A program made the translations under genes and the position numbers. The notes under the pieces are model-generated. The model ran no database searches. It was not told the origin of the DNA and worked only from the letters and a program-made list of their open reading frames with translations. This document shows, piece after piece, positions 24,064 to 41,451 of a stretch of DNA of 58,404 nt (position 1 is the stretch's first letter; each line of letters starts with the position of its first letter). This DNA comes from a virus (taxonomy: Duplodnaviria > Caudoviricetes), in IMG/VR virus record IMGVR_UViG_3300003465_000373, positions 1 to 58,404 of that record; one strand, 5' to 3'.

Positions 24064-24139
24064 TGGAGACAGAGGGACTCGAACCCTCGACCATGAGCTT
24101 CCACTTGGGCCTTAACTCCCGGTCACGCCTGTTATCCCC
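24064..24139 (-). ncRNA. minimal tmRNA tRNA-like-domain mimic
   Basis: GGGGATA/TGTCTCC-A (G3:U70), stemless D loop, GACC/GGTC helix, T arm GAGGG-TTCGAGT-CCCTC, no mRNA-like domain. Confidence 0.65.
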
Positions 24140-24698: not shown

Positions 24699-24961
24699 TC
24701 TCTGTTGTTGTTTCTTCGATCCGCACTTGGTTGGCGGGCCAGCCGCCATATGTACCATCGGCACTTGCGGCCTTTTTCTTTACTTCATCCCGGCAGCGGC
24801 CCACCATGTCTTTTGAGAAATAGCCGATCATGTCACCTACTTCGAGGCAACACACGTCAACGCACTTCTCCATGATGAACGTCCACGTCGTCGGTTCTGC
24901 TTTCTTTCTGCCGGTAATGAACGTGGACTCGACATGCAGATCAACTTCTTTGCTCATAAAG

Positions 24962-25033
24962 AGCCACCGGAGGGAGTCGAACCCTCTTGTCCCGCTTACA
25001 AGGCGGGTGCATCGCCGGCAATGCTTCAGCGGC
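24962..25033 (-). tRNA. tRNA-Thr(TGT)
   Basis: CCCGC-CTTGTAA-GCGGG. Confidence 0.88.
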
Positions 25034-25069
25034 ACAAACGCAACGACTATGTAGTGCTTGTCATATGGA

Positions 25070-25864
25070 TTATATCACAAAAGCCGCAGGAAGTTCTCCT
25101 TCTGCCATCGCCTGCTCGTTTTCGAGCCAACTCACGAGGAAATAAACATCGTTGCTTTCGATGACCAGTATATTGTCGTTTTCCCGGTCGAGTTTCGACT
25201 GGACCTTCTTCGGGATAGGCCCGGCCGGTCGGTCAAGGACAATAACCGGCAGGTAGCCCCTGGCGTTGCGAGTCAGCTTGGCAAAACGGTATGTTTCGCT
25301 TAACTGGTTATCCTGGTGTCCTCCGACCCAATCCTTTACACGTTTCTGGCAAATGTAAGCCTCCACTTCGCCAACTTCCACCCGAAAGTCTAACGATTTA
25401 ACTTGGTCACTGCTCGCCGGCCTCTGCGTTACCACGTTGCCGTGGTCATCGAGATACCTTGAATTATTGCCACTAAGTTTCTCCCAGCTAAAGTGGCGGT
25501 TGTTCTTTTTGACATACTTAAAGCATTGCTTTAAGTATGCCTCTCCCACATTTTGACGGTTAACGCCTATGGCAAAACCTTGCAGTATAAACAATTCTTC
25601 AAGCTGATTGATCCGCCTATCGTAGAATTTCTTGAAGTCATTTACACCAAACTTATCTTCAAGACCCCATTCGGTCAACCTCTTGAACATTTTGTCCTGT
25701 GTGCTGATGTCAAACTTACCGGACTCGAATTGGGCTTTCATCGTGGCGATATTCTGGCCCTTTTTTTCTTCGAGGAACTCGTCGTAATTCAACGGGATGT
25801 CGTACCTACCTACATTCGCTTTCTTGAACTCAACGAAACTTTCTCGACCAAACTTATCTAGCAT
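25070..25864 (-). CDS. putative restriction endonuclease
   Basis: RQNVGE...KSLDF..YICQK..GGHQDNQ pattern suggests a PD-(D/E)xK-like nuclease; adjacent to an MTase; AT-richer than flanks. Confidence 0.55.
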   Translation of the reverse strand: MLDKFGRESFVEFKKANVGRYDIPLNYDEFLEEKKGQNIATMKAQFESGKFDISTQDKMFKRLTEWGLEDKFGVNDFKKFYDRRINQLEELFILQGFAIGVNRQNVGEAYLKQCFKYVKKNNRHFSWEKLSGNNSRYLDDHGNVVTQRPASSDQVKSLDFRVEVGEVEAYICQKRVKDWVGGHQDNQLSETYRFAKLTRNARGYLPVIVLDRPAGPIPKKVQSKLDRENDNILVIESNDVYFLVSWLENEQAMAEGELPAAFVI

Positions 25865-25979
25865 TTAACTGTTCTCTCAGTTTGCAACGTATTATTTTCC
25901 TTCAGTTTTGGTTGAGACAAGAATCCTCGAACGCACCTAAACTGGCTATAGCATAGATCGGTAAACTGCCGGAAAAACT

Positions 25980-27179
25980 TCACATCGCTCTCTCACTTGT
26001 TAGCGAGATACGTTCGATGGCTTCTTCCATGATCGCCCTGGCTGTTCTGTAGTCGATCCTGCGTCTCCTTTGGCCCTTCTTGTTGTTTCCCTTGAATGGA
26101 GCCATTAAGAGGTCGCAGGTGTCTTCCCGATACTTTTCCAATATCTCGTTGCAGGCGGCGAGGAACGCATCTTCTTTCCCGACCACGCCTGGAACGTCAA
26201 TTATGGAGACGAGCCTACTCGAAACCTTCATTTTGCGGTCGTAATTGAGTTCTTCTGGTTTGCAGAAGATGATGCGATCAGAGTGTGTACTGTCTATGCC
26301 ACGAAGTCCAATGTTGCCTTGTTGGATGTTGAAGGTGATTGTGTTCTTCTTATGTGGTCTTTTATCCATTCCCTTCAACTCACCGAGGGTGAATAGGTAC
26401 TGTTGGTTCTTGTATACTTTGGCTTGACTGCCCTTGGAATCATCACCATGCCAGCACGCTACCAATACAGGGCAGTCAGTGTTCTGAAAAATCTTCTTCT
26501 CGATTATCGCAATTATCGCTAGGCGGTCCTGGAAGGCCCCGTTCAAAAGGAACGTCTCCGGGATTATTGCTACGACGTTCTCGTGACTATCCAAGCACTT
26601 TTCTATGGCGAGGAGATATATGTCCGTTAGACTTGTGTTTTCAAAATACTGGTAGAACCGACTCCCATACCTTGTTGCAGTACACTTCGACATATAGGGC
26701 GGGTTCGTCACCACAAGCCGACCCGTGGCAGGGATGGATACCAGCGAATCGTTGTAGGCCACTACACCGTTGACCATGTTCACATCTATATCTAGCCCAA
26801 TGAAATCATCGACGCCGATTTTCTTGAGTGCAGTCCATAACGAGCAGTCCCCAGCATATGGGTCGATCACACCATGCTGACAATGTGACTTGATGAAGTC
26901 TTTGACTGGCTTTACAAGCCACTTATCGGATGTTGTGAAGTGTTGAGCCAGGTCAGTATCGGCGGTTTTTAGCTTTTCTTGACACCATTCCAAGAATCTT
27001 GCAGGCGGCTCACAGTCTCTTGGTGAGTTGCAGCGACAAAAGTAATGTTCCAACAAATGATACGGAACAGTATCACCAGTTTCGGAGATGTACAACTCGT
27101 AGAAGTCTTTGCAGGTATCTACTATTTGGTGACGCTTCATGAATTTGAAGCAAGACCTGCCAATCTGCGTCTTTGCCAT
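25980..27179 (-). CDS. N6-adenine DNA methyltransferase
   Basis: QHFT, IDPYAGD (motif I), VTNPPY (motif IV), IIPETFL. Confidence 0.85.
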   Translation of the reverse strand: MAKTQIGRSCFKFMKRHQIVDTCKDFYELYISETGDTVPYHLLEHYFCRCNSPRDCEPPARFLEWCQEKLKTADTDLAQHFTTSDKWLVKPVKDFIKSHCQHGVIDPYAGDCSLWTALKKIGVDDFIGLDIDVNMVNGVVAYNDSLVSIPATGRLVVTNPPYMSKCTATRYGSRFYQYFENTSLTDIYLLAIEKCLDSHENVVAIIPETFLLNGAFQDRLAIIAIIEKKIFQNTDCPVLVACWHGDDSKGSQAKVYKNQQYLFTLGELKGMDKRPHKKNTITFNIQQGNIGLRGIDSTHSDRIIFCKPEELNYDRKMKVSSRLVSIIDVPGVVGKEDAFLAACNEILEKYREDTCDLLMAPFKGNNKKGQRRRRIDYRTARAIMEEAIERISLTSERAM

Positions 27180-27200
27180 AAACCGTGTATGTAATCGTTG

Positions 27201-27695
27201 CTACTCGATAGTCACTTGATTCTTGAACGGCTCGGGCTTCTGCCAAGTGGTGCCGAGGCTGGTCTTATAAGCGACTTTCTGGTAAGCGATTGCCATCTCA
27301 CTCCAGGAGAACGGGTCATCAATGTGCTCATCGGTCTGGATGGACCGGCACTGACATCCCGTCAAGTCCCATTGCTCGATCATTTGGCCGCAGCCGTCGT
27401 ATAGTCCCAAGTTGAGCCTGGCGAAGTCCGTTGGTGGGTACTTGCCGAATTCGTGGCTCAGCGAGACGACGATCAGTTCCCAATGCGGGTACTGCTTGCC
27501 GGGAATCCAGGACTTGTGACTTAAGAAGTTAAGTTCGACTTCCTCAATGGGGAAGTTGGGCCTGGAGTTGACTTTGACGAACTGCGGCTCCTGAAGTATC
27601 TGTCCCTGGTCGCCAAAAAACGTGGCGATCCACCTGAACTTTTTCTTGAACACCTGCGGCTTGAATTCGTGTTGCAAATTCTCTGGTGCGTCCAT
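27201..27695 (-). CDS. divergent tail tube (gp19-like) paralog
   Basis: FKKKFRW, FVKVNSRPN..IEEVELNFL..K.WIPGK, LYDGCG..IE.W.L resemble T4-like tail tube proteins. Confidence 0.6.
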   Translation of the reverse strand: MDAPENLQHEFKPQVFKKKFRWIATFFGDQGQILQEPQFVKVNSRPNFPIEEVELNFLSHKSWIPGKQYPHWELIVVSLSHEFGKYPPTDFARLNLGLYDGCGQMIEQWDLTGCQCRSIQTDEHIDDPFSWSEMAIAYQKVAYKTSLGTTWQKPEPFKNQVTIE

Positions 27696-28012
27696 TACTT
27701 GTGCTTCTCGATTAGTTTGCGTAATGCGTCTTCGGAGAGCAGCCCGGTCTGCCGATCCACTTCCTTGCCGTCCTTGATGAACAGGATTGTTGGAACGACT
27801 GAAATCTTGTAGTCTGACGACAGCTTCATGTTCTCGCTGGCGTTGACCTTGCCGATACTGACAGCCTCGCCGTACTCTTCAGACAGTTTGTCGATGGTTG
27901 GGGCCAGGCGGCGACAGGGGCCGCAGGTTGGCGTGTAGAAATCCACGACCGCCAACTTGTCCGACGTTAGAACTTCGCCGTGGAACGTATCTTCATTGAA
28001 TTGCTTCGTCAT
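27695..28012 (-). CDS. trxA: thioredoxin
   Basis: VVDFYTPTCGPCR, VPT cis-Pro motif, ~105 aa. Confidence 0.9.
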   Translation of the reverse strand: MTKQFNEDTFHGEVLTSDKLAVVDFYTPTCGPCRRLAPTIDKLSEEYGEAVSIGKVNASENMKLSSDYKISVVPTILFIKDGKEVDRQTGLLSEDALRKLIEKHK

Positions 28013-28297
28013 GTGATCCTCTCTGCGTGTACTGTTGTATTTAGATAGTGTTCGTAGAAGTAATATCGGCTGAAGGAAGGCTGGGCTTGAGGGATAAATA
28101 GGGCATGTGCTGCGACGGCAAGCCGGTAAGGCTAAACCACCTGAACGATGGCGTGGATCATTTGGCAGACGACATCCCCATCCGCAACGACGATGCGGCT
28201 CCGATGAACGTCCCAGACCTGAAATTGACAAAAGTAACGGGCAGATCGACCCGGTGGGTCAAAGACGTGACTACAGAAGTGACGGATAAGCCTTAAG

Positions 28298-28380
28298 TGC
28301 CCAGGAGAGGACTCGAACCTCCACCCGATTGCTCGGACCAGCCCCTCAAGCTGGCGTGTCTGCCATTTCACCACCTGGGC
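28298..28380 (-). tRNA. tRNA-Leu(GAG), long variable arm
   Basis: CCAGC-TTGAGGG-GCTGG. Confidence 0.92.
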
Positions 28381-28389
28381 AGGTGTGAT

Positions 28390-28683
28390 CTATCTATGCT
28401 TCTTCTGCTTGGAATCGTAAAGCCCTGTGTTCTTCAACGTCCTCTGGACCGATAACAAGTCCATCGCCGTCATGATGCTGTTGGCCCTCATGCGGCGAAG
28501 GATGATGAACAGCGACGTGTCCTTGTGCCGAAAGATCGTGGCTTTCACTTGCCGACCCTGCGGCTGGACTTCTATCGGCTCTGCGGTCCAGCCAAGTTCC
28601 TCCAAAGCGGAGCGTACCTCACCGTACCGATAGACCGGTCTAACGTCCAGGAGGAAGTCCATCAACTGCTGGCTGGTCTTCAT
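28390..28683 (-). CDS. hypothetical protein
   Basis: 97-aa ORF. Confidence 0.6.
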   Translation of the reverse strand: MKTSQQLMDFLLDVRPVYRYGEVRSALEELGWTAEPIEVQPQGRQVKATIFRHKDTSLFIILRRMRANSIMTAMDLLSVQRTLKNTGLYDSKQKKHR

Positions 28684-28686
28684 TCC

Positions 28687-29232
28687 CTACTCCCTCAGCG
28701 GCGGTTGGCAATAGTTCCAATCCTGGACCATCTTCGCCGTCCGCAGTAAACCAAATGTATAGTCCTCCCTCGTGACCTCATCCTCGCCGCACGGGAGGAA
28801 GATTCCTTGCTTGGCCGGCATTGGTCGGTACAGTGTCTTGCTCATCCTGGTCTTCGGGGTAATATACATTGTCACCGAGCAGACTTGACCAGAATAAACC
28901 GCCCCATATGCCACAAGAAGCTGCGACTGGCACTGGTAAGGAACCTGACGATCCCTGTCATGTCGGGTGTGGAAAAGCATCTCTCCATAGACACGACGGA
29001 ACGGGTGATTGGCGTCGTGGTATAGGCCCTCGATAAAGCTGATCGGCAGGTAGATGCCATCCTGCTTCGCCACCCGCACCAAAGCTGTTTTGCGGAAGAA
29101 CGGAATGACCGTCCGCTTGGGCGGCTCCTGAGCCTCGACCGGGCCGAAGATTTCATCCCAGCTTGTCCGACTCAAGTATGCCTGGACCCCAAGGTGAGAA
29201 TCAAAGCGTGGAACCACGATGAGGGAACGCAT
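28687..29232 (-). CDS. hypothetical protein
   Basis: ORF from MRSLIV with AAGGAGG RBS. Confidence 0.65.
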   Translation of the reverse strand: MRSLIVVPRFDSHLGVQAYLSRTSWDEIFGPVEAQEPPKRTVIPFFRKTALVRVAKQDGIYLPISFIEGLYHDANHPFRRVYGEMLFHTRHDRDRQVPYQCQSQLLVAYGAVYSGQVCSVTMYITPKTRMSKTLYRPMPAKQGIFLPCGEDEVTREDYTFGLLRTAKMVQDWNYCQPPLRE

Positions 29233-29242
29233 GTCTGCCTCC

Positions 29243-29446
29243 TTATTCGAGGCCAACCATTGGCAGCACCTTCTGGAAGAGTGTCCGCCTTGCTTCGTCA
29301 ACCTCGGCCTCGGCCTCCAGCCAGAACTCCACATCTCTTCCCAGAGGGAAGCCGGCGTCCTTGGCCTTGAGCCACGCCTTGAGGGCGATTTCCTCGTGCC
29401 TTCTCTGTTGCCGAAGCATTGAGTCTTGGTACGTCGGAAGCGGCAT
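29243..29446 (-). CDS. DUF2934 family protein
   Basis: EEIALKAWLKAKDAGFPLGRDVEFWLEAE. Confidence 0.8.
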   Translation of the reverse strand: MPLPTYQDSMLRQQRRHEEIALKAWLKAKDAGFPLGRDVEFWLEAEAEVDEARRTLFQKVLPMVGLE

Positions 29447-29477
29447 TTCTGGCTCCTTCGTGGTTAGGAATGGATAG

Positions 29478-29560
29478 TACCCAGGAGAGGATTTGAACCT
29501 CCACGTCCTTGCGGACATTGGCTCCTGAAGCCAACGTGTCTGCCGTTTCACCACCTGGGC
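29478..29560 (-). tRNA. tRNA-Leu(CAG), long variable arm
   Basis: TTGGC-TTCAGGA-GCCAA. Confidence 0.92.
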
Positions 29561-29565
29561 ATTGA

Positions 29566-29664
29566 ACAGACGTGCCCGGCCCGATGTCGTTCGTGAGGCG
29601 ACACACCAACCGGCCACCGTCCAGGTTGCCCTGGGGTCGGTGGCTCCGTGCCAGGCCCGTCGTT
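29566..29664 (-). ncRNA. candidate three-way-junction small RNA
   Basis: GCCTGGC/GCCGGGC closing stem, GCCACCG/CGGTGGC arm with GCAA tetraloop, TGTCG/CGACA arm. Confidence 0.5.
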
Positions 29665-29888
29665 CTCATCCATTGCTGAGCATGACATACTGCTGTACGG
29701 CTACATCCGTGCAGCCAAGGGACTTGAGATGGTCGTAGAAAGTTCCTTGCTTGCCAGACTCCATGAACTTGATCTCCTCGTCCCACGGGCTGAGTCCTTC
29801 AGGGATAACGAGGGAGAACACAGGAGTCTGTTCTCCAGTCCACTGTTGCATGGTGTAGAACGTGAAAATCCGCTCCATACGGCTTATC

Positions 29889-30194
29889 TCACGGGTAGCG
29901 GTTGGGCAGGCGGTGCTGCCGGTCGTAGGCTCCCGCCTGCCAGCCGTTGCGATACTCATCGGCAAACGTCCAGCGAATGGGAGCAAGCCAGTTTCCTGCG
30001 TAGCCATCACGGTATCCCCTGAGATATGCGTTGGATGGCGAAGCTGGCGGCTTCGGCATGTCCTGCGGGATCGGCGGCGGCGACTCGGCCTTCGGCGGTG
30101 CTACCTGCGGAGGCGGCACTACGTTCGGCTCCTTCTGGCAGCCGACGCCGACCAGCAACATACAGGCGAATAATACAAGGAAAATGTGTTTCAT
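29889..30194 (-). CDS. putative lipoprotein
   Basis: Signal peptide with lipobox GVGC, Pro-rich linker. Confidence 0.7.
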   Translation of the reverse strand: MKHIFLVLFACMLLVGVGCQKEPNVVPPPQVAPPKAESPPPIPQDMPKPPASPSNAYLRGYRDGYAGNWLAPIRWTFADEYRNGWQAGAYDRQHRLPNRYP

Positions 30195-30224
30195 GACAAT
30201 ACCAACCTTTTTTGAAAGAAAAAG

Positions 30225-30306
30225 CGGAAGGTGAGGGACTCGAACCCCCAACGGTTTCCCGCAGACCGCTTTCAAGGCGGCACCCTCGTCCAGCCGGACA
30301 CCTTCC
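30225..30306 (-). tRNA. tRNA-Ser(TGA)
   Basis: GCCGC-CTTGAAA-GCGGT, V arm, G73. Confidence 0.85.
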
Positions 30307-30750
30307 TTATGGTTCGTTAAATCCCAAAGCAGCCATGAGGTCTTTGCCTTTCATTGGCGTGACCGGTTCAGGGTCCGGCCACTCATCCCAGGTGCTCGTG
30401 ATACGGACATGCTTCGGGTCAATGCCGATGGCCTTGAGTCTGAACTCTGCCTCGGACTCCTCCTTGATGTCGGAGTGTTGGGCAATTGCGGCATGGCAAT
30501 ACGTCTGCACCTTCCAACCATCCCGCACCAGGGCCTCTACGATGTCAGCACAGAGGCATAAGTGCTGGTCAAGTTGGTGGCCGACGTTCCGAAGCAACGG
30601 CCCGATCTTGATACCGGGAAACTCTCGGTGTACGGCCTGAAAGTGCTCTGCCATTCCTGGGTACATCAGGGGCACGACTACTTGTGCTGTGGCCACTTTT
30701 GCCTCACGCTTCTTCAAAAGGCTAATTCTCGTTCGCATATGAGGTCGCAC
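30307..30750 (-). CDS. hypothetical protein (start uncertain)
   Basis: ORF of up to 147 aa. Confidence 0.55.
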   Translation of the reverse strand: MRPHMRTRISLLKKREAKVATAQVVVPLMYPGMAEHFQAVHREFPGIKIGPLLRNVGHQLDQHLCLCADIVEALVRDGWKVQTYCHAAIAQHSDIKEESEAEFRLKAIGIDPKHVRITSTWDEWPDPEPVTPMKGKDLMAALGFNEP

Positions 30751-31453
30751 CTTTTCTCAAGGATGGCGACCGCATTCTGCAACTCGGTTAAAACCTCGCA
30801 GAGCTTGCTGGGCACCGTCCAGAACTCGTCATCCGCCCGGATCATACCGGCTGCGGACTCTACGAGCGTCTGTACGGCGTTACCCCCGGTCGGGTCATAG
30901 GCAATGAATACGACCTCGCTTCTGGGCAAAGCCGCCGCCGTCTCAGCCATTGCCTTCTTCCTCCACGACTTCGACCGGCAATGGCTTGCCGTCGAAGGGG
31001 CAGGGGTCGCTGTCCTTGTGGCGGTTCGGGTTGGCACACTGTCCCTTGCAGTAGAAACCGCACTTGGGGCATAAGACCTCAAGCTGGCCGTCGTTGACGA
31101 CCTGCAACTCCACACGATCAACCTGCTTACAGTGGTGGATGGTGCTCTCGCCCATTTTCAGCCTCCTTGAGTTTCTTCCGCCTTCTTCTGCACGTCCAAC
31201 TTCGTCCACGGTCGCTTTGGCATGGCGTCACCTGGAATTGGCTGCCTTCGGCACCTCGCTGATCTTGTCAATCTCGGAAAGGCGGTTGCCAATGGCGACA
31301 GAGATTATGCCCCAGGCCACAAGGCAAAGAAAGGCCACGGTTGTCAGACCGGGATCGTCACGCTTGATAGCGAAAATAAGGCTTACGACACCACCGGTCA
31401 GGAAAAGTACAAACATGACTGACAGGAATATGAGCAGCAGCATAGACAACTCC

Positions 31454-31708
31454 TTAGTCGAACAGGGCCTTATCCACTTCCTTTTCGGCCTGGAGCCAAT
31501 TGTCTCGCTCGTCCTTACTGCCATGCAGCCAACGGAAGTAGGCACGCTTGGCGATCTCATTGCGACGGGCATTTTCGTCAATTACGAGTGCCCCATTATC
31601 CTCGTCCTCGACCCAGACGTTGATGCGGACTTCATCCGCCCATTCCTGCCAGTCGTTGCAGAGCAGGTCATCATGGGCCTCTTCAATTATTTCACATCTC
31701 ACTTCCAT
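31454..31708 (-). CDS. DUF2934-containing protein
   Basis: EIAKRAYFRWLHGSKDERDNWLQAEKE. Confidence 0.7.
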   Translation of the reverse strand: MEVRCEIIEEAHDDLLCNDWQEWADEVRINVWVEDEDNGALVIDENARRNEIAKRAYFRWLHGSKDERDNWLQAEKEVDKALFD

Positions 31709-31749
31709 GTTTCCTCCAGGCGACTTAAGTAGTCTCCTAAGTAATATCG

Positions 31750-32487
31750 TCAATGTTCGTCCGGCACTTTAAGGAGCCGGTCACGGTAGTTCACAAAGAG
31801 TTCGGTCGGCAGCCAAGCACAGCCCGGCTTGCACAATGGTATCACATCCTCGTAGGGAACCCACTCCCAGCCGAGGTTCTTGTTCGGCTCCATCAGAACT
31901 GGCTCACCTTCGATCCAATCGGCCACCACGAAGATGCCGACATAGTGTTTGCCTTCGAGGACGTTGTTGACGACCATCCAATCCAGGCGTGACTCATCAA
32001 ACCTGCGGAGTTTCACCTTGAGTTTGGTTTCTTCTTCGACTTCCCGCAGACTTCCGTCCTCGATGGACTCGCCGTATTCAAGATGTCCTCCTGGAACACA
32101 GCGGCTCCCCTCACAGTGACTCCCGATCCGAGTGCCCAGGAGGACGTGACTCTGTTTAACGATGACGACACCCAGGCCGACCTTGGGTTTGCGGTCTTCG
32201 CCGCAGATCAACTTATTGACCCAGGAAACGAGGCCGTTTTTCGTCCAGAAAGAGTTGGGTTGAGTGCTCATGATGTCTTGGTACACCATGAGGCGGATTA
32301 AGTCAAGCCTTTGTGCAACCTGCTGACACCAGATGACATTGGCCTCTTCCCAATCGTGATCGGAGACGCTATAGTTGGCGTCATAAAATGCTTGAATAGG
32401 AGTGAGGTCTGCGATCAAGGCGTGCTGAAGTTCACGCAGTCGCTTGTCAATGTGGTTGTCTAGGCTTTCCATGAGTCGGTCCTGCAT
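31750..32487 (-). CDS. Nudix hydrolase with N-terminal extension
   Basis: Nudix box PGGHLEYGESIEDGSLREVEEET; MEPNK..GWEW. Confidence 0.88.
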   Translation of the reverse strand: MQDRLMESLDNHIDKRLRELQHALIADLTPIQAFYDANYSVSDHDWEEANVIWCQQVAQRLDLIRLMVYQDIMSTQPNSFWTKNGLVSWVNKLICGEDRKPKVGLGVVIVKQSHVLLGTRIGSHCEGSRCVPGGHLEYGESIEDGSLREVEEETKLKVKLRRFDESRLDWMVVNNVLEGKHYVGIFVVADWIEGEPVLMEPNKNLGWEWVPYEDVIPLCKPGCAWLPTELFVNYRDRLLKVPDEH

Positions 32488-32683
32488 TAGTGTCCGGGGT
32501 GGGGGTCGAACCCACATGACCCATTTTTTGAGAATGGGATGTCTCGCCAGTTGCATCACCCGGACGATACGGGCAGTGCCTACAACCTGAACTGCAACAG
32601 TAGCCTCGCTTCAACAGGAACAATTCTGTGAAGACGTACTTGCCGTTCTCCAAGTAATAGTCAACACCCTCAACGAGCTTCAT
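32447..32683 (-). CDS. DUF5522-like small Cys-rich protein (3' end overlaps tRNA)
   Basis: DYYLENGKYVFTE.FLLKRGYCCSSGCRHCPY. Confidence 0.7.
   Translation of the reverse strand: MKLVEGVDYYLENGKYVFTELFLLKRGYCCSSGCRHCPYRPGDATGETSHSQKMGHVGSTPTPDTNAGPTHGKPRQPH
32491..32565 (-). tRNA. tRNA-Leu(CAA), short variable region
   Basis: CCATT-CTCAAAA-AATGG; no V arm. Confidence 0.85.
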
Positions 32684-32687
32684 GGAG

Positions 32688-32762
32688 TGTTAGCGGTGGG
32701 ACTCGAACCCACAAAACCCTGGTTCTGAACCAGAGATGTCTCACCAATTGCATCACGCTAAC
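32688..32762 (-). tRNA. tRNA-Leu(CAG), short variable region
   Basis: TCTGG-TTCAGAA-CCAGG. Confidence 0.85.
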
Positions 32763-32767
32763 GTAAG

Positions 32768-32841
32768 TAGCCCCGAGAGGACTCGAACCTCCAAACTGCT
32801 GGCTCTAAACCAGCCGGCTTTGCCAATTTGCCTACAGGGCC
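32768..32841 (-). tRNA. tRNA-Leu(TAG), short variable region
   Basis: GCTGG-TTTAGAG-CCAGC. Confidence 0.87.
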
Positions 32842-32846
32842 AAATG

Positions 32847-33287
32847 TTACTCTAATCGAATGACCTTATTCCGACCTTCAATCACTTCAAATGAGTCCGC
32901 ACAAGCAACCGTGCCGGCGTAACTCACGCCACAATATGGTTCAGTTTGATACACGATTCTCTTCACTAAATGACCGTCTGGCACACGACACTGCAACTTC
33001 TTATTCAGGTTCACTATCGTAACTTCGCCTCTACGATCCAAGAAACTGACAACCTGAACTCTGTTGCCATTCGGCATAACCATTTCATAAGGTGTCAAGG
33101 TTTCTTCAAACTCTACTCGTGCCGGCCTCGTCAACGTGCCCGCAAGCCAGGTAATTAGAACCAGATAAGTAAGCCAGGCCGTCATCTTCCACCGTTTTTG
33201 AATTTCAGAATCGGCCAGACAGACGACCGACCAAATCGTGGTAGCAAAGATGAGTACACCCAACACCAATATGTGCATGAAGACCAT
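32847..33287 (-). CDS. membrane protein
   Basis: Two N-terminal TM helices; AAGGAG RBS. Confidence 0.65.
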   Translation of the reverse strand: MVFMHILVLGVLIFATTIWSVVCLADSEIQKRWKMTAWLTYLVLITWLAGTLTRPARVEFEETLTPYEMVMPNGNRVQVVSFLDRRGEVTIVNLNKKLQCRVPDGHLVKRIVYQTEPYCGVSYAGTVACADSFEVIEGRNKVIRLE

Positions 33288-33302
33288 GATGTTCTCCTTA
33301 AG

Positions 33303-33393
33303 CGGAAGGCGTGGGACTCGAACCCACACAGCCACATCTTAGTGGCTGTACACGCTTTCGAGGCGTGCCCCTCATCCAAGCCGGATGCCTTCC
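33303..33393 (-). tRNA. tRNA-Ser(CGA)
   Basis: CACGC-CTCGAAA-GCGTG, long V arm, G73. Confidence 0.87.
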
Positions 33394-33398
33394 ATTAG

Positions 33399-33473
33399 TG
33401 TCACCGGTGGGACTCGAACCCACAAGACCCAGGCTCTCGACCTGAGATGTCTCGCCAATTGCATCACGGTGAC
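33399..33473 (-). tRNA. tRNA-Leu(GAG), short variable region, C33
   Basis: TCAGG-TCGAGAG-CCTGG. Confidence 0.8.
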
Positions 33474-33479
33474 GTAAAG

Positions 33480-33554
33480 TAGCCTCGGTGGGACTCGAAC
33501 CCACAAAACAAGTCATTTTAAGTGACCCGGATTTGCCAATTCTCCTACGAGGCC
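33480..33554 (-). tRNA. tRNA-Leu(TAA), short variable region
   Basis: GGTCA-CTTAAAA-TGACT. Confidence 0.87.
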
Positions 33555-33703
33555 AGTGCTTGAACTCAACTCTAACGAGATAAGATCGCACCAATGTATT
33601 ATTGACGTTTCATCGCCGTGCGACACCGCTCTCTCCCCCTACGGGTCAGGGGCCGGATCACGGTCAAGAGGTTCCCCGGTCGTCGTGCGAATCCCCGTCA
33701 AAG

Positions 33704-33792
33704 CGGAAGGAGAGGGAATCGAACCCTCGGCTCCCTTGCGGGAGCACCAGTTCTCCAAACTGGCCCGGCTGACCATCGTCCGGCCCCCTTCC
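33704..33792 (-). tRNA. tRNA-Ser(GGA)
   Basis: CCAGT-TTGGAGA-ACTGG, long V arm. Confidence 0.85.
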
Positions 33793-33795
33793 ATT

Positions 33796-34353
33796 TCACA
33801 TCTCTTCTGGCGTTGGCTTGTCATACCACATTCTTGCCGACAGCATGTCGCAGCAGTGACAGAAGGCACCAAGCCGCCCAATAATCCGCTCCTCGCCGTA
33901 ATCTTTCTCGCCGTGTATGTGGGTGAGTGCGTTGAGTTCCTCTTCCGTGAAGAGAATGTCATACACATCCGGCAGAGCGTGCTCGTAGAGGAACTTTTTG
34001 TTCTCGTCCTCCACGATGGCCCGATGAATTTCCCACCGTGGCGGCTCCAGATCACTGTACTTGAATATCTTCTCAACGTCGTGGAAATAGATCACTTTGA
34101 CGACGTTGTGCCACTCGAACGGTAAGTCCCGAAGCCAAGCCAGGCCCTCATACATTGTCTCACCGATCAGCAGACACTCGACCAGATGATCGACGTAGCC
34201 GCCCTCCCACGCCTGGTGCTTCTTCTTCGACCCCTTAGCCTTCTTGATAAGTTGCTCGTGGTCGTGGTGGAACCTCAACAAGCCATCGTAGTATGACTGG
34301 TCTTCACAGGCACGCAGGAATTTCATCAGCACTTTGTAGTTGCCCACGCTCAC
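33796..34353 (-). CDS. HD-domain protein (YhaM-like)
   Basis: KKHQAWEGGYVDH, YFHDVEK, HIHG, HCCDMLSAR. Confidence 0.8.
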   Translation of the reverse strand: MSVGNYKVLMKFLRACEDQSYYDGLLRFHHDHEQLIKKAKGSKKKHQAWEGGYVDHLVECLLIGETMYEGLAWLRDLPFEWHNVVKVIYFHDVEKIFKYSDLEPPRWEIHRAIVEDENKKFLYEHALPDVYDILFTEEELNALTHIHGEKDYGEERIIGRLGAFCHCCDMLSARMWYDKPTPEEM

Positions 34354-34626
34354 TGCGACAGATACCCCTTCACAAAGCCGCCGACCATGCAGCCGAAGCC
34401 GAATGCTGGCATCGTCCAGCCAAACGGGATCAAGAACGACCTGTAATCCGAGATTTGTTCTCTGGCGATGCAGTCGCCGGCATACAGCAGGCCGCTCATG
34501 ATGGCCGAGAAACAGATGCCGAGTAAGAGTCCTAAAAACGAACAGACTAGAGTTTTCTTCACGTTATTCCTCCTTGGATATAACTCTTATCGACACATTT
34601 AAGCGTTAACTTCACTATTTAACTTC

Positions 34627-34989
34627 ATGCTCAAGTTGCCGCTTGCTTACGCCACTATGTCCGTGATTTTCCTGTCGGCGTGCTTGGTCTTCAACTACTT
34701 CATCAACACTGTTCTTAAGCACTCACAAGGCTTTTGGACTGATGTAAAGGCATGGGCTTTGTTCGCCGTCCCACTCATGTTCATCCACAGTTTCATCACG
34801 CTTGCCTGGCGAACTGGCAAGGAGGCCGGTATTGACGGGTGGGGCGTCACGATTACCGCCACCCTTGCCAATGCTCTCGGTACAACCCTTGCCCTGTGGC
34901 TCTTCTTTAACGAACCACCCACTGCCGGCAAACTCATCGGCCTTGGCCTAGTAGTCGCCGGTAGCGTCGTAGCTACCTGCTACGGCTAA
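34627..34989 (+). CDS. 4-TM DMT/SMR-like membrane protein
   Basis: Four hydrophobic helices; LFFNEPPT.GKLIGLGLVVAG. Confidence 0.7.
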   Translation: MLKLPLAYATMSVIFLSACLVFNYFINTVLKHSQGFWTDVKAWALFAVPLMFIHSFITLAWRTGKEAGIDGWGVTITATLANALGTTLALWLFFNEPPTAGKLIGLGLVVAGSVVATCYG

Positions 34990-35332
34990 ACCGCAATAAT
35001 CCCGCCATCCACGACTTCGCCTTGTAGTAGCGTTATTTGGTTCATTGCGAGCGTGATACCGGCATTCTTTAGTGCGTCACGCCATTGTAATTCCAAATCG
35101 GACGGAGTGAACACCGGGCCATCCAAAAAGAAGTCTATATCTGGGGTTGGCAAGTCTGGTCCAATGATCGCCTCCCTTGGCGTTGGCACCAAATCACCAT
35201 AACGCCGATTGGTCTTATTGGTCTGACCTGTTATCAGATCGACTGTGGACGAAGACAGTATCGCATTGTGAATGTTCCAGTAGGGCATGACCTTACCTCC
35301 TTTTGGAGTATGTATTGTCATGGCAGTACAAA

Positions 35333-35413
35333 TGGGTCCATGAGGAATCGAACCTCTTAGGATTAACCAGCGGTTTTACAGACCGCCTTGCTTCCCACAG
35401 CGATAGTGGACCC
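35333..35413 (-). tRNA. tRNA-Tyr(GTA)
   Basis: GCGGT-CTGTAAA-ACCGC, V arm, atypical D arm. Confidence 0.8.
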
Positions 35414-35447
35414 GACTGGAACAGAGAACTTGGCAACAGTTGTAAGA

Positions 35448-35518
35448 GGCATAAGTACGGGAATCGAACCCGCTCCTCTCCCTGTGGACGGGAGTGTGCT
35501 CCGATACACCAAGCCCCC
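35448..35518 (-). pseudogene. tRNA-like gene with broken acceptor stem
   Basis: D, anticodon (CTCCC-GTCCACA-GGGAG) and T arms present; acceptor strands do not pair. Confidence 0.55.
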
Positions 35519-35526
35519 AAATTGTA

Positions 35527-35646
35527 TGGCCCCACCGGTCAGGACTCGAACCTGACAACCTTTCCCTTGCGGGCTTGCTCTTCATCCACACCCCATACAT
35601 TCAGAGGGGGAAATTAAGTGGCTACCACCTTCGAGCTACGGGGGGT
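35527..35646 (-). ncRNA. anticodon-less tRNA mimic with D-loop insert
   Basis: D stem GCTC/GAGC encloses a ~45-nt hairpin; CCC-GCAA-GGG mini arm; T arm GTCAGG-TTCGAGT-CCTGAC. Confidence 0.7.
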
Positions 35647-35789
35647 AAGCGGGGGCTGTACTCCTATCGAGCATCCTCATTCTCCAGCCCGCTTTCCACG
35701 GCGGACCTGGGTTCCAGAGTTTCGTGTTGCCTTTTTAGGCTTATTTCGTATACTGCACGTCAGTCGCCCCACATTCAGGAGGACCAACG

Positions 35790-36395
35790 ATGTTTTCCAT
35801 GACCCGCCGCAGCTTCCTCAAGGGCCTGGCCGCATTGGGCGGCTTCCTCGGTCTGACCAAGGTCGCAACCGCTAAGCCGGTGCCCGTCGATCCCAAGCCG
35901 TCCCACCTTGTCCGCCTCCAGTTCGAGAAGCACAGCGAGTGCGACGATCTATGCGTCGTCAACGGCCCCGAGGCCCTGAATGGCATCCCCTTGGAGGAGA
36001 GGCCCACCGGCCTCCATGCCTCGTGGAAAGGCATCAGCTTCAAGTGGAGCCGGGAAGGTCGTGCCTGGATCGACAAGAAAGACGCCCAATGGCTCAGGTG
36101 GAAGCTGCCGAAGGGGCCTTATGACTCGCCCTTCGGGGAAAACATTCGAGACTTCATCTCCTGGGGCGAAGTCATCATCATTGAGGAAGTCACCTTCAGT
36201 ACCACCAGGAACACCGCCTGTGTGACCTTCATGTTGAAGCCCTGCGAAGCAACACGGAAGATTGAGTACCCGTCGAACTTCCACTTCAGCCAGAGCAGGG
36301 AGACGATCCGCCAGGAAGTCGAGCGAGCCTTTGCCGACACCGGCGACCCCAGGCCGGGCCTGCCGATTGACGACTATATCGGCCCGAAAAAGTAA
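35790..36395 (+). CDS. protein with twin-arginine (Tat) signal peptide
   Basis: MTRRSFLKGLAALGGFLGLTKVATA; AGGAGG RBS. Confidence 0.75.
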   Translation: MFSMTRRSFLKGLAALGGFLGLTKVATAKPVPVDPKPSHLVRLQFEKHSECDDLCVVNGPEALNGIPLEERPTGLHASWKGISFKWSREGRAWIDKKDAQWLRWKLPKGPYDSPFGENIRDFISWGEVIIIEEVTFSTTRNTACVTFMLKPCEATRKIEYPSNFHFSQSRETIRQEVERAFADTGDPRPGLPIDDYIGPKK

Positions 36396-36396
36396 G

Positions 36397-36478
36397 TGCG
36401 TTGGGAGGGAATCGAACCCCCACAGCCTAATGGCGTCTGGGTTACAGCCAGGTGAACTCGCCAATGTTCAGCCAACGC
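36397..36478 (-). tRNA. tRNA-Tyr(GTA)
   Basis: CTGG-CTGTAAC-CCAG, V arm. Confidence 0.85.
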
Positions 36479-36484
36479 ATTGAG

Positions 36485-36620
36485 TGACCCTGGAGGGACT
36501 CAAACCCTCAAGCCCTTTACAGTGTGGGATGGGACTGCACCAACCTTCCACTTGCGGTTTTATCTCCCGCTGGCGGCGGCTTTCTCTGGGCCGCTTGTTT
36601 TTCGTTTTCACCACAAGGTC
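36485..36620 (-). ncRNA. tRNA-ended RNA with replaced D/anticodon domain
   Basis: GACCTTG/CAGGGTC-A acceptor, T arm GAGGG-TTTGAGT-CCCTC, ~100-nt structured interior. Confidence 0.6.
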
Positions 36621-36628
36621 ATTAACAG

Positions 36629-36706
36629 TGCCAGCGGAGGGACTCGAACCCTCGACCTTCCGGGTTTCAACCGGACGCTCTTTCCAAAAAGCTGAGCTAC
36701 GCTGGC
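36629..36706 (-). tRNA. tRNA-Phe(GAA)
   Basis: TCCGG-TTGAAAC-CCGGA. Confidence 0.9.
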
Positions 36707-36746
36707 ATTTGGCCTTACCGAATTGTCAAAGATCGAAACGATCAAG

Positions 36747-36819
36747 TGCCTGGGGTCAGACTCGAACTGACCACCCCTTGCTCTTCAGGCAAGTGCTCTA
36801 CCGGATGAGCTACCCAGGC
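36747..36819 (-). tRNA. tRNA-Phe(GAA)
   Basis: CTTGC-CTGAAGA-GCAAG. Confidence 0.92.
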
Positions 36820-37177
36820 ATTCATTCACACGTCGAGGCCCCGGAGCCGGGCGATCTTCTCCAGTTCGTTACGCCTCTGAACCAGCCGCTTGAGGGTGCG
36901 GTTGTTCGCCGCCTCCCAAGGCGTCTCCGGTTCGTAGTTGTCGATAATCTGCTGGAGGGCCTCGATCTTCTCCTCCAGCGTCATGTCGCTCCTCATCAAC
37001 GTCCAGGCGTTCATATTTTTACATTCCACCAAATCCGTCGCTACTTCCCTCCTTAAACCAGAGGTATAGGAGGAAGAGTAAAAACGCTAACACAATGCCC
37101 GCACAAAGGTTTCCCATATTTCGTGCCCCGGCGACCAGTTGTCCCGGCGTTGCAGGCCAGCGTCCTCCAAGGGCAAG

Positions 37178-37266
37178 CGGAAGGAGAGGGAGTTGAACCC
37201 TCGGCCCCCTTGCGGGAGCGACGGTTTAGCAAACCGTTGTGGAAAACCGACATCCACGTTCCCTCC
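37178..37266 (-). tRNA. tRNA-Ser(GCT)
   Basis: ACGGT-TTGCTAA-ACCGT, long V arm. Confidence 0.85.
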
Positions 37267-37287
37267 AGTTTGACCTGACAAAACTTG

Positions 37288-37374
37288 CAAGACATTGACG
37301 GACTCGAACCGTCTCACCGGGCTATGAACCCGGTCGTTAGCCGATAACTGTAGTCCTACGACCATTCAGGTCTT
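37288..37374 (-). ncRNA. initiator-like (CAT) tRNA with enlarged D arm and bulged acceptor
   Basis: CCGGG-TTCATAG-CCCGG (three G-C pairs); D arm GTCGT..ACGAC extended. Confidence 0.65.
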
Positions 37375-37468
37375 TGAACGCCGCAGTCGCCTTCATGGCC
37401 CCCACGATACAACTGCCTTCGCAACAGGTCTGGCCTTGCGGCCAACTTAGTGCAGGCTGACGTTCAAG

Positions 37469-37541
37469 TGCAAGGTACGGGACTCGAACCCGTAAACCCA
37501 CGTTGGCAACGTGGTGTGATCGCCAATTTCACCAACCCTGC
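37469..37541 (-). tRNA. tRNA-Gly(GCC), atypical A73
   Basis: CCACG-TTGCCAA-CGTGG. Confidence 0.85.
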
Positions 37542-37576
37542 GGCTCCAGCGAGACAACAAGTCCAAAAGACGTTCG

Positions 37577-37642
37577 TGATCTTCGGGTGGGAGTCGAACC
37601 CACAACCTCTCCAGCTTGTCACCTGGACACGATCCAAGATCA
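37577..37642 (-). ncRNA. D-armless tRNA-like RNA (GAC in an 8-nt loop)
   Basis: GATCTT/AAGATC acceptor, TCCAG-GTGACAAG-CTGGA, T arm GTGGG-TTCGACT-CCCAC. Confidence 0.65.
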
Positions 37643-37711
37643 TCCGGGGGAACCTTCTTCCAAAGAGGTAGTCCTCTAGGGCATTCTCGCAGTTAAGGCT
37701 TATTCAGCCAG

Positions 37712-37782
37712 AGACTCCGGTCGGATTTGAACCGACGTGTCTGATTTTGCAGACCAGTGCCTTGCCTCTCGGCCACGGAGTC
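37712..37782 (-). tRNA. tRNA-Cys(GCA)
   Basis: CTGGT-CTGCAAA-ATCAG, U73. Confidence 0.92.
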
Positions 37783-37979: not shown

Positions 37980-38015
37980 CCCTCCATGAAAAAGAGGACA
38001 ACCGTTCTGTCACAG

Positions 38016-38088
38016 TATTCCCGGCAGGAGTCGAACCTGGCATCGCTGGCTTCGCAGGCCAATGCTCTGTCCATTGAGCTACGGGAAT
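38016..38088 (-). tRNA. tRNA-Arg(GCG)
   Basis: TTGGC-CTGCGAA-GCCAG; A20-type D loop. Confidence 0.87.
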
Positions 38089-38199
38089 AAAAAAACCCTC
38101 CAGACTGGCTTCAGGCTGGAGGGTTCTGAGATTCTTATCTCTATGGTGCTTGCCGACTTACTCATGCTTCTCTTCAGTCGGTACACTTCCCTCCAGCCT
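38089..38199 (-). promoter_or_regulatory. transcription attenuator 2
   Basis: Terminator CCCTCCAG/CTGGAGGG-T7 directly before tRNA-Arg; antiterminator AGGCTGGAGGG (38189-38199) inside the leader ORF. Confidence 0.82.
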
Positions 38200-38256
38200 T
38201 GCGGAATAACGCAAGGACGAAAGACAAAGGCCCAGACTAAAGCAAAACACGTTCAT
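38158..38256 (-). CDS. leader peptide 2 (32 aa)
   Basis: MNVFCFSLGLCLSSLRYSARLEGSVPTEEKHE*; AGGA RBS. Confidence 0.75.
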   Translation of the reverse strand: MNVFCFSLGLCLSSLRYSARLEGSVPTEEKHE

Positions 38257-38282
38257 CGTTCAGTATTCCTGAGTTAAGGGCA

Positions 38283-38594
38283 TTACTGCCCAGCACCACT
38301 TATGTAGTAACCAGCCTCGATTTTTTTCGCAACCTGGGTTTCTTTTTTCTCGATCATCCCAACAGGACGCTCCGAGAGGACGATAGGTTCGGGCACTCTC
38401 TTGATTTCCTCGCCACATTGCGAGCAAAACAGCCTCACCACCACATCCTTGACGCAGACCGCCTTGTGGACGATCCGGCCGTCTTCTTCCTTGATTGCCA
38501 GTGTTTCCCAGATGTTTTCTTCGGAAACGTGCTTCTCGAACTCCTTTGAGCCGCAGTTGCACCTGACATTGTTCTTATCGTCCAGTGTGACCAT
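38283..38594 (-). CDS. Zn-ribbon hypothetical protein
   Basis: CNCG and CSQC motifs. Confidence 0.6.
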   Translation of the reverse strand: MVTLDDKNNVRCNCGSKEFEKHVSEENIWETLAIKEEDGRIVHKAVCVKDVVVRLFCSQCGEEIKRVPEPIVLSERPVGMIEKKETQVAKKIEAGYYISGAGQ

Positions 38595-38631: not shown

Positions 38632-38967
38632 TCACATCGAAAAACTCGACCCGCACCCACAAGTCGTCTTGACATTGGGGTTAGTGCAGACGAAGCCCAT
38701 GCGGTTGAGGTCGTTAATGAAGTCGATGGTCGTGCCATCGACGTACATGGCGGAACGGAGGTCAACCATGACCTTCACGCCGTCCTGCTCGATCACCGTG
38801 TCCTTCTCTTTCGGGGCCTCCGGGTCGAGTTCGAGCTTCCACTGGAAGCCTGAGCAGCCGCCGCCTCGCACGGCCACACGGAGCTTAATCTCCTCGCCCT
38901 CCTGAGCCTGCTCTGCGATGATCCTCTTGATCTCTTTAACGGCGTTCTCGGTAAGCGTTATGTTCAT
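38632..38967 (-). CDS. iscA: A-type Fe-S carrier (IscA/ErpA/HesB family)
   Basis: LRVAVRGGGCSG, NPNVKTTCGCGSSF. Confidence 0.92.
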   Translation of the reverse strand: MNITLTENAVKEIKRIIAEQAQEGEEIKLRVAVRGGGCSGFQWKLELDPEAPKEKDTVIEQDGVKVMVDLRSAMYVDGTTIDFINDLNRMGFVCTNPNVKTTCGCGSSFSM

Positions 38968-40680: not shown

Positions 40681-41451
40681 TCATTTCAAATTAAAGCACT
40701 TATCCAAGTGGCAGAGCATTCGCTGACGGCCATTTGGCGAGGCAACTGGCTTCTGTGACGAGTCGCAGTGCTTCTGGACGTAAGTCTCAACCTCACCAAT
40801 GTCAACGGACCTGTTGTTATCATAGTCTGCCTCGCTCAAGGCTTTGACGAATGGCTTAACGAAATTCCAGACGTAGGCTGATTTATGCGACTCGCACGCT
40901 GCCAAGATCGCTACTCGGTCATTGTGCTTGTCCCAATCGACCAACATCGCTCCAGCGTGGCAGGCGTCCACCAGGAGCAGCAGGTGGGCCTTTACTTTCG
41001 ATAGTGCTTCGATTATCTCGGCAGCCGTCACACTATCGCTGGCTGGGTAGAACTTGAAGTTCCCTTCTTTGCCCCCGCTGCCGTGCGTGCCAATGTAGAC
41101 GATGCACAAGTCATCGGGACCAGCAACATCCGCCACCCACTTTAGACCTTCCAAACACTTCTCTCTTGTGGCCTGTTGGCTGTGGACAGATTTAATCTTG
41201 ACGTGGTAAGAGCTATCGCACGCCTTCTTGATCCCGTCCTCGATGTGGCGGGCCTCCTGGGCAAACACGTCCTCACGGTTGCTGTTGACAGCAACGTAGT
41301 TGACGCCAACGCTGAACATAATCAGATTAGGTTTACAGTAAGGAGCCGGGCATTGAGCCGGCACACGATTCGGAGCTTCTGTGGCGTTGATGGCTCCAAA
41401 TGCCATCAGGGCTACTACAGAAGCAAAAAAGCGAAAGCATCTTCTGAGCAT
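40681..41451 (-). CDS. secreted caspase-like (C14/C13) protease
   Basis: His-Cys dyad VYIGTHGS / LLVDACHAG; signal peptide. Confidence 0.8.
   Translation of the reverse strand: MLRRCFRFFASVVALMAFGAINATEAPNRVPAQCPAPYCKPNLIMFSVGVNYVAVNSNREDVFAQEARHIEDGIKKACDSSYHVKIKSVHSQQATREKCLEGLKWVADVAGPDDLCIVYIGTHGSGGKEGNFKFYPASDSVTAAEIIEALSKVKAHLLLLVDACHAGAMLVDWDKHNDRVAILAACESHKSAYVWNFVKPFVKALSEADYDNNRSVDIGEVETYVQKHCDSSQKPVASPNGRQRMLCHLDKCFNLK

Follow-up and report, generated by a model that had tools for sequence, protein, structure and literature searches.

What controls the transcription of a phage tRNA operon is the question raised by positions 38089-38282 of the viral record IMGVR_UViG_3300003465_000373. 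Transfer RNAs (tRNAs) of phages are usually treated as a fixed supplement to the host pool, and the control of their expression is largely unknown. The whole record from the IMG/VR database was analyzed (58,404 bases, hereafter the window; completeness estimate 12%). It comes from a T4-like phage, as seen from its Gp23 capsid protein and its intein-containing Gp20 portal protein, and records with capsid proteins around 80% identical are up to 532,729 bases long, with as many as 59 tRNA genes. A look-up of sequencing runs for this DNA returned none. ARAGORN found 49 tRNA genes in the window, all 49 on the minus strand. One group of 20 (cluster B) is made up of 16 Ser/Leu/Phe/Tyr tRNAs together with Arg(gcg), Cys, Gly(gcc) and Thr(tgt), and it starts directly behind a terminator that is itself preceded by a small open reading frame (ORF). 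According to the evidence presented here, this element is probably a codon-specific leader-peptide (ribosome-mediated) transcription attenuator of the tRNA operon.

The elements of such a device can be read in order along the minus strand, to which all coordinates of the leader locus refer. The leader ORF (38158-38256) has an ATG start, 32 codons and a TAA stop, and a Shine-Dalgarno (SD)-like AGGA (38267-38270) is found 10 nucleotides (nt) ahead of the ATG. An intrinsic terminator hairpin follows (38094-38125; -18.2 to -20.8 kcal/mol), formed by a 5' arm (segment 3, 38123-38113) and a 3' arm (segment 4, 38106-38096) and completed by a U-tract of seven T (38089-38095). The first gene past the terminator is tRNA-Arg(GCG) (38015-38088; found by ARAGORN, 58.7 bits with the Rfam tRNA model), the T run ends at 38089 and this gene begins at 38088, and there is no room for a promoter between them. 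An earlier, sequence-only reading of this locus had placed the end of the T run at the first base of tRNA-Arg(GCG); the terminator indeed stands directly in front of the gene, with the run ending one base before that base and not at it. The tRNAs that this reading listed next, Arg(GCG), Cys, Gly, Ser, Phe, Phe and Tyr, were found in the same order by ARAGORN, with the anticodons gcg for Arg, gcc for Gly and gct for Ser. The remaining 19 tRNAs of cluster B (Cys, Gly(gcc), Thr(tgt) and the 16 for Ser/Leu/Phe/Tyr) extend over 22011-37782 on the same strand, with small ORFs interspersed, and two minus-strand promoter-like sites (35111-35084 and 30199-30170) are located within the cluster region.

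The comparison of leader codons with the downstream tRNAs defined a regulatory run at codons 4-18 (38203-38247), which is also segment 1, the 5' strand of a long hairpin. These codons read F C F S L G L C L S S L R(CGT) Y S, exactly as listed in the sequence-only reading, and 15 of the 15 are cognate to cluster B tRNAs. The background of such cognate codons in the long ORFs of the phage is 0.32, which gives a probability per position of P ~5e-8 for 15 out of 15. In addition, this run of 15 is the longest run of cognate codons in the six frames of the window, the runner-up having 13.

Immediately after the regulatory run, codons 20-23 form the 11-nt antiterminator strand (segment 2, 38189-38199), which is paired with segment 1 in the minimum-energy fold and can alternatively pair with segment 3. 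Its sequence, AGGCTGGAGGG (38199-38189), is the exact reverse complement of the terminator 5' arm (38123-38113), which bears out the 11-nt complementarity claimed earlier. Only three matches to this 11-mer with up to one mismatch exist in the 58,404-base window, and all three fall within the leader locus. A Watson-Crick complement of at least 10 nt appeared in 17 of 5000 shuffles of the 250 nt upstream, and no duplex between ORF and arm as good as that of the window was obtained in 1000 dinucleotide shuffles. Furthermore, the leader-locus terminator has the longest upstream complement among the seven minus-strand terminators examined.

The RNA of this region is also strongly structured. The 200-nt leader stretch folds at -76.6 kcal/mol (z = -6.1), with none of 200 shuffles folding as well, and a long imperfect hairpin of 37 pairs, nine of them G-U, encloses most of the ORF. 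Two further hairpins had been pointed out in the sequence-only reading, and both exist: the tip of the long hairpin (38197-38216; 38216-38210 pairs with 38203-38197, 7 base pairs and a 6-nt loop) and a middle hairpin of 6 base pairs at the stop codon (38153-38181; 38181-38176 pairs with 38158-38153), whose 3' arm overlaps the stop codon by one base. The fold also contains a small hairpin of 5 base pairs between the ORF and the terminator (38128-38141), without counterpart in the related loci described below.

The same arrangement recurs in huge phages related to this one. The nine loci considered here are the window and G001, G002, G003, L095, L096, L101, L106 and L109; near-identical copies (e.g. 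L107) were not counted. Terminators abutting tRNAs were checked in the window and in the tRNA regions of three related records, which uncovered a very strong one in G003, 6 nt before tRNA-Tyr, the first tRNA of its cluster. The leader of G003 is a GTG-initiated ORF of 27 codons with GGAG 10 nt ahead, and its codons 4-19 encode Leu, Ser, Tyr and Phe only. A scan of loci for small ORFs rich in the leader residues and associated with a terminator gave 143 candidate rows; six of these had a terminator, five from the window, G001 and G003 and one an unrelated ORF in L061. Downstream of the module, G001 and G002 have a small S24-like gene and, behind it, tRNAs for Ser/Phe/Leu; with the S24-like gene as anchor in viral and metagenome contigs the leader loci L095, L096, L101, L106 and L107 were found. 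Among the 75 anchor loci with at least 200 nt of upstream sequence, nine had a leader-like ORF, one of them a false positive (L169). L109 and a partial locus, L104, came from a covariance model. A DNA pattern scan of viral contigs returned only four already known records, and a model built from two close relatives (R1), run over 28 related records, most of them fragments of 6-30%, likewise found four, all already known.

The S24-like protein has 99 amino acids and a weak match to Peptidase_S24 (E = 0.003, below the cut-off), and in most relatives its gene comes next after the leader and terminator. The gene was seen at L093:4001-4297, in L094, L095 and L097 and in 80 metagenome loci (L101-L180), and relatives of the protein are encoded by no fewer than 463 metagenome stretches. 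No such gene is present in the window.

The eight diverged loci share a common layout, in which a promoter-like site, an SD, an ORF of 24-27 codons, a long hairpin and a terminator precede tRNA clusters for Ser/Leu/Phe/Tyr. A peptide profile separates these loci from the rest of 71,089 small ORFs (E <=2.4e-6 versus >=0.5), and the peptide has a conserved Asn at position 2 as well as a conserved E/G-G motif. A start codon (ATG or GTG) together with an SD-like site is kept in eight of the nine loci, the SD of the relatives being GGAG, AGGG or AAGGTG placed 7-10 nt ahead of the start codon. A promoter motif (TTGNNN, 17 nt, TAC(T/C)AT) located 27-56 nt before the start codon is present in six of nine related copies listed (G001, G002, its twin L107, G003, L096 and L106); L095 has a weaker -35 (TTGTTT), and L101 has the -10 hexamer and no TTGNNN at the 17-nt spacing. 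L109, which is outside those nine copies, has the same motif as read from its sequence. In the window, a weak promoter-like site occupies the same relative place (38304-38332; -35 TTGCGA at 38332-38327, 17-nt spacer, -10 TACTAC at 38309-38304), within the 3' end of an ORF of 103 amino acids. A consensus promoter scan of the window did not report this site because the last base of its -10 is C; transcription may therefore also enter from upstream.

The comparison of the nine loci indicates that it is the reading frame that is under constraint. Codons for Leu, Ser, Phe and Tyr (plus Cys, Gly and Arg in the window) account for 119 of the 128 in-frame regulatory codons, whereas the other two frames give 47 and 48 of 128; the segment limits of this control were chosen by the analyst and favour frame 0, and the gap is large. 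Between four close pairs of loci, the three indels found within the ORF are all 3 nt long, versus multiples of three in 4 of 30 outside the ORF. Between lineages Leu, Ser, Phe and Tyr exchange freely in the leader peptide, which would be odd for a functional peptide and is expected if codon class alone matters.

The tRNAs downstream point in the same direction. In G001, Ser/Leu/Phe/Tyr tRNAs make up 13 of the 14 that lie downstream on the same strand (the exception carries a CUA anticodon), and all 18 of 18 codons of the regulatory run are cognate; in G003 the figures are 14 of 14 tRNAs (Tyr/Ser/Leu/Phe) and 16 of 16 codons. Only in the window does the regulatory run contain Cys (TGC, TGT), Gly (GGC) and Arg (CGT) codons, and only in the window do tRNA-Arg(gcg), Cys and Gly(gcc) lie behind the terminator. 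It is suggestive, from a single lineage and with no statistic attached, that leader codons and cluster tRNAs changed together. As a separate observation, tRNAs with a CUA anticodon, labelled Pyl by ARAGORN, were seen in or near the tRNA clusters of relatives (G001 (L087), L099 and L100), and these may be amber suppressors.

Seven distinct sequences were folded and gave one topology, with a long hairpin over the ORF, a middle hairpin near the stop and the terminator. In an alignment of the relatives fitted to the model, 92.5% of the cells are paired, compared with 76.8% in shuffles (none of 500 reaches the observed value) and 40-54% when the pairing partners are slid, and both bases have changed in 31 of the 48 pairs. 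In the relatives, compensatory changes are seen in six of the six pairs of the tip hairpin, and a model built from six relatives with the window left out (R2) aligns the tip hairpin of the window to it. The equivalent of the middle hairpin is 89% paired, with compensatory changes in three of five pairs. In addition, the conserved Ser-Leu codons (AGTCTG motif) pair with a segment that is able to pair with the terminator 5' arm instead. Out of 320 registers tried, that of this segment 2/3 pairing was the best, with 41 of 47 cells paired, or 87% versus 27-64% in slid controls. Taken individually, the complementarity between ORF and arm is significant in four of seven loci, the window and three of six relatives (shuffles as good out of 1000: window 0, G003 0, L101 12, G001 18). 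Between the window and the relatives the sequences of the pairing segments show no relation, and complementarity has thus persisted through sequence change. All these data, namely the recurring layout, the frame-specific codons, the in-frame indels, the covariation and the match between leader and tRNAs, support at the sequence level the attenuator proposed in the earlier reading.

The locus has an ORF with a putative ribosome-binding site, regulatory codons that match the operon and a terminator without an intervening promoter, and the mutually exclusive 1:2, 2:3 and 3:4 pairings were obtained in silico only. From this we infer translation of the ORF, read-through driven by stalling and a feedback logic, which would operate as follows. 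Transcription would enter from the weak promoter-like site at 38332-38304 or as read-through of the preceding genes. The nascent RNA would then fold into the long hairpin, in which segment 1 (codons 4-18) sequesters segment 2 (codons 20-23), segments 3 and 4 would form the terminator, and RNA polymerase would halt at the U-run, one base ahead of tRNA-Arg(GCG). When charged Phe, Cys, Ser, Leu or Gly tRNA is scarce, a ribosome stalled within codons 4-14 would keep segment 1 covered, and the freed segment 2 would pair with segment 3, so that no terminator forms and the tRNA genes are transcribed. Since the leader codons are read by the very tRNAs that the operon encodes, this would be a feedback loop setting the tRNA supply of the phage.

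This scheme was modelled with transcripts cut just ahead of the terminator 3' arm (segment 4), in which a ribosome footprint was placed on each codon and equilibrium folds were computed. With the ribosome at codons 1-14 of the window leader, codon 4 excepted, segment 2 was free and paired with segment 3; at codons 15-27 no antiterminator was formed, and a ribosome stalled at codons 15-18 (the Arg and Tyr codons are among these) also hides segment 2. Without a ribosome, the cut transcript gave no antiterminator in one run, and in another the antiterminator and the long hairpin were nearly equal in energy. For G001, the segment 2 pairing was gained when the ribosome stalled at codons 3-16. The relatives have their stop codon about 2-5 codons after segment 2, and from this geometry a ribosome at the stop would therefore mask at least part of segment 2.

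Several results weigh against this interpretation, some of them concerning the switch itself. In the window the ORF continues for 9 sense codons past segment 2, so that a modelled ribosome at the stop leaves segment 2 uncovered, and with the ribosome at codons 28-33 (the stop region) the antiterminator forms again at equilibrium, which misfits the classical logic; the exact switching path, already called uncertain in the sequence-only reading, remains so. In the full transcript the terminator is the thermodynamic winner at 32 of 33 ribosome positions, and therefore the choice must be kinetic, as is the choice between terminator and antiterminator in the trp leader. The expression signals of the window are not ideal either, since the SD spacing is long (10 nt) and the -10 hexamer is without its final T. 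In L109 (411-596) the homologous start reads GAG, with no ATG, GTG or TTG in frame nearby, in a frame that is open and has kept its composition; a true variant, a non-canonical start and an assembly error are all conceivable here. As for the codons, 5 of the 16 regulatory codons of G002 are without a cognate tRNA in the sequence at hand, and the leaders of L101 and L109 contain Lys and Gln codons. Selection of synonymous codons so as to cover each tRNA species was considered and rejected, as the choice did not go beyond chance (P = 0.29, 0.37 and 0.20; window 0.036).

Other adverse points concern the conservation of the structure and the family membership of the window copy. Covariation was assessed on an alignment that had been fitted to the model and in which four of the 12 rows are antisense terminator hits; a MAFFT alignment of all eight sequences gave a partial consensus only. 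Covariation of the segment 2/3 helix is not above that of shuffles (115/500), and the complementarity between ORF and arm is not significant in L095 (274/1000), L106 (491/1000) and G002 (783/1000). Model R1 recognized only the terminator part of the window and did not match the leader. The best match of R2 in the window, at 38086-38288, is full length and marginal (11.4 bits, E ~0.03 with a rough calibration), and a peptide profile made without the window ranks the leader ORF first of 2,919 small ORFs, but with E = 0.33. We therefore read the window element as either a divergent member of the family of its relatives or a close analogue, and the functional argument appears to be independent of which of the two applies.

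Other explanations of the locus have to be weighed against these data. Canonical terminators also separate co-directional genes of this phage (e.g. those at 40207-40184 and 44998-44977) and the gene for the 103-amino-acid protein ends at 38283; an ordinary terminator or a small RNA was therefore favoured at first. That the hairpin simply terminates this upstream gene and that the ORF is there by chance, a 32-codon ORF being nothing unusual in itself, now seems extremely improbable. It would leave without explanation both the structured spacer of ~160 nt that separates the stop codon at 38283 from the terminator and the significant 11-nt complement, and the module recurs in relatives without the 103-amino-acid gene, for which there is no homologue at all. 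Alternatively, the element could be a conserved structured small RNA, or a 3' untranslated region, with its own terminator, the ORF being an untranslated by-product of the pyrimidine-rich hairpin arm and the tRNAs being produced by leaky read-through and RNase P cleavage. The T4 tRNA region encodes small stable RNAs of unknown role, and the great stability of the RNA (z = -6.1), its covarying helices, the absence of a canonical start codon in L109 and a second terminator-like hairpin that abuts tRNA-Gly at 9375 with no leader-like ORF seen before it would all fit. We nevertheless regard this as unlikely, as the amino-acid restriction is specific to one frame (93% versus 37-38%), the indels of the ORF keep that frame, SD-like sites and start codons are found in eight of nine loci and no Rfam family matches.

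If the ORF is translated, its product might matter more than its codons. A Ser/Leu-rich small peptide with a function of its own (e.g. membrane-active), encoded ahead of a partly leaky terminator and only incidentally before tRNAs, would account for the conservation of ORF, start codon and SD and for the Asn at position 2 and the E/G-G motif. We give this possibility little credit: the substitutions are radical for a folded or membrane peptide, yet they stay within the set read by the cluster, the position before a Ser/Leu/Phe/Tyr tRNA cluster is constant, no promoter can fit behind the terminator and the ORF codons are complementary to the terminator arm. A switch that senses translation without codon specificity, in which any loading of ribosomes on the leader would open the long hairpin and relieve termination, so that tRNA output follows overall translation capacity and not the supply of particular charged tRNAs, is closer to the proposed attenuator and agrees with some of its weak points, since nearly every ribosome position within codons 1-14, and in the window also those at 28-33, gave the antiterminator at equilibrium, and synonymous codon choice is untuned beyond chance. 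It does not explain, however, why 119 of 128 in-frame codons are restricted to the amino acids of the downstream tRNAs, nor the joint gain of Cys, Gly and Arg codons and tRNAs by the window, and its probability is low in our judgement. Codon-specific attenuation by a leader peptide thus stays the probable reading of the locus.

The window contains a second module of similar design (15812-16140, minus strand), ahead of the other tRNA cluster (cluster A). It includes a 41-codon ORF (16042-15917) with AGGAG upstream, folds at -119 kcal/mol (z = -6.2) and is followed by a terminator (15854-15824); a 9-nt stretch at 15885-15877 is complementary to the 5' arm of this terminator. Leu, Phe, Tyr and Cys codons are completely absent from this ORF (0 of 40, P ~6e-4; 8 and 5 in the other frames), the opposite of the leader ahead of cluster B (leader 2), which consists almost entirely of Phe/Cys/Ser/Leu/Gly/Arg/Tyr codons. 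Cluster A has cognate tRNAs for only 26 of the 40 codons of the second ORF, the background share being 0.55. No sequence match to this module was found in G001-G003, and a generic scan revealed no clear counterpart there. We tentatively suggest, with more doubt than confidence, that the two modules form a closed feedback loop, in which each of the two tRNA operons would be gated by its own test ORF, the two ORFs dividing the genetic code between them; stalling on a codon family would switch on the operon that supplies it and the resulting tRNAs would shut it off. If true, autoregulation of tRNA genes via leader translation would here be seen for the first time, and the loop could also sense depletion or cleavage of host tRNAs during infection. 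Apart from these modules, a GC-rich hairpin with a T-rich tail (9376-9401, minus strand) runs exactly up to the first base of tRNA-Gly(gcc) (9375); a gap of ~13 nt, in which no leader-like ORF was seen, separates it from the stop codon of the ORF upstream. Two ARAGORN tRNA-like genes with the two-base anticodon 'tt' and no assigned amino acid were also found (7754-7826 and 13925-14000, minus strand).

Searches starting from the surroundings of the leader yielded no close relatives of the window locus. The 103-amino-acid ORF (38283-38594, minus strand) lies directly upstream; its protein had no homologue besides itself in a search of 5.8 billion proteins, and no relatives in viral contigs or in five related records. 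Its 3' end covers the position of the leader promoter in the relatives, and the ORF may be a recent insertion that weakened this promoter. A neighbouring protein of 189 amino acids likewise had no relatives in related records, and the proteins upstream of the window leader were also absent from the loci gathered later. A search with an exact 37-nt tRNA pattern gave no relatives of the window locus, the matches common to named phages and the window were tRNA-sized only, and 80 loci around related capsid genes had only structural genes in common with the window; a 185-amino-acid protein of the cluster led to one distant phage, where the leader element is absent. Further upstream, the window encodes an IscA/HesB-type Fe-S cluster assembly protein (38635-38967, minus strand; E = 2.9e-23) and a Peptidase_C13-like protein (40684-41451, minus strand; E = 4.2e-7), both unusual cargo for a phage. 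The intein is seen in the T4-type portal gene (52428-55004, minus strand) as an intein splicing domain (Pfam Intein_splicing, E = 8.9e-11).

With respect to what has been reported before, no published case of leader-peptide attenuation of tRNA genes was found among the listings and abstract openings given by a full-text literature search, and the available passages of a survey of attenuators (PMC2965389) do not contain the phrases 'tRNA gene', 'tRNA operon' or 'upstream of tRNA'. What appears to be new here is the application of leader-peptide attenuation to tRNA genes, the mechanism itself being already known from bacterial amino-acid operons. If the proposed reading is true, huge phages would gauge decoding capacity directly and tune tRNA synthesis to demand, and a textbook bacterial mechanism would be extended to a new class of genes. 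It would also provide a simple sensor of tRNA shortage, e.g. after host shut-off or in the face of a tRNA-cleaving defence, in an element that is short, self-contained and portable.

The closest known systems are the leaders of the enterobacterial thr, ilvGMEDA, leu, pheA, his and trp operons, where a short ORF with regulatory codons, exclusive 1:2, 2:3 and 3:4 pairings and a terminator precede the genes. The phage element resembles them in its short ORF of regulatory codons, its exclusive pairings and its terminator, and the use of several amino acids in one leader is also found in thr and ilv. It differs from them in that it would control tRNAs and not biosynthetic enzymes, in that its leader samples 4 to 7 amino acids and not runs of one or two, and in that the product of the operon, tRNA, is the very thing that the sensor reads. 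Furthermore, it matches no Rfam leader (Phe_leader scores 18.2 bits, the threshold being 55), and the stop codon of the window leader is far past segment 2.

Control of the translation apparatus by leader-peptide attenuation is also known from the pheST operon of E. coli, whose pheM leader contains Phe codons only and regulates phenylalanyl-tRNA synthetase. The likeness lies in the control of a component of the translation apparatus rather than of a biosynthetic pathway; unlike the phage operon, pheST encodes a synthetase, is sensed through Phe codons only and is neither a tRNA operon nor phage-borne. In the T-box riboswitch, too, the choice between terminator and antiterminator reports the charging state of tRNA, as the phage element would do, but the T-box binds uncharged tRNA directly and needs no ORF. 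In the window only the tRNA family reaches its Rfam gathering threshold, with no leader, riboswitch or T-box family among the matches, and the frame-specific constraint on the codons points to the ribosome as the sensor, unlike in the T-box.

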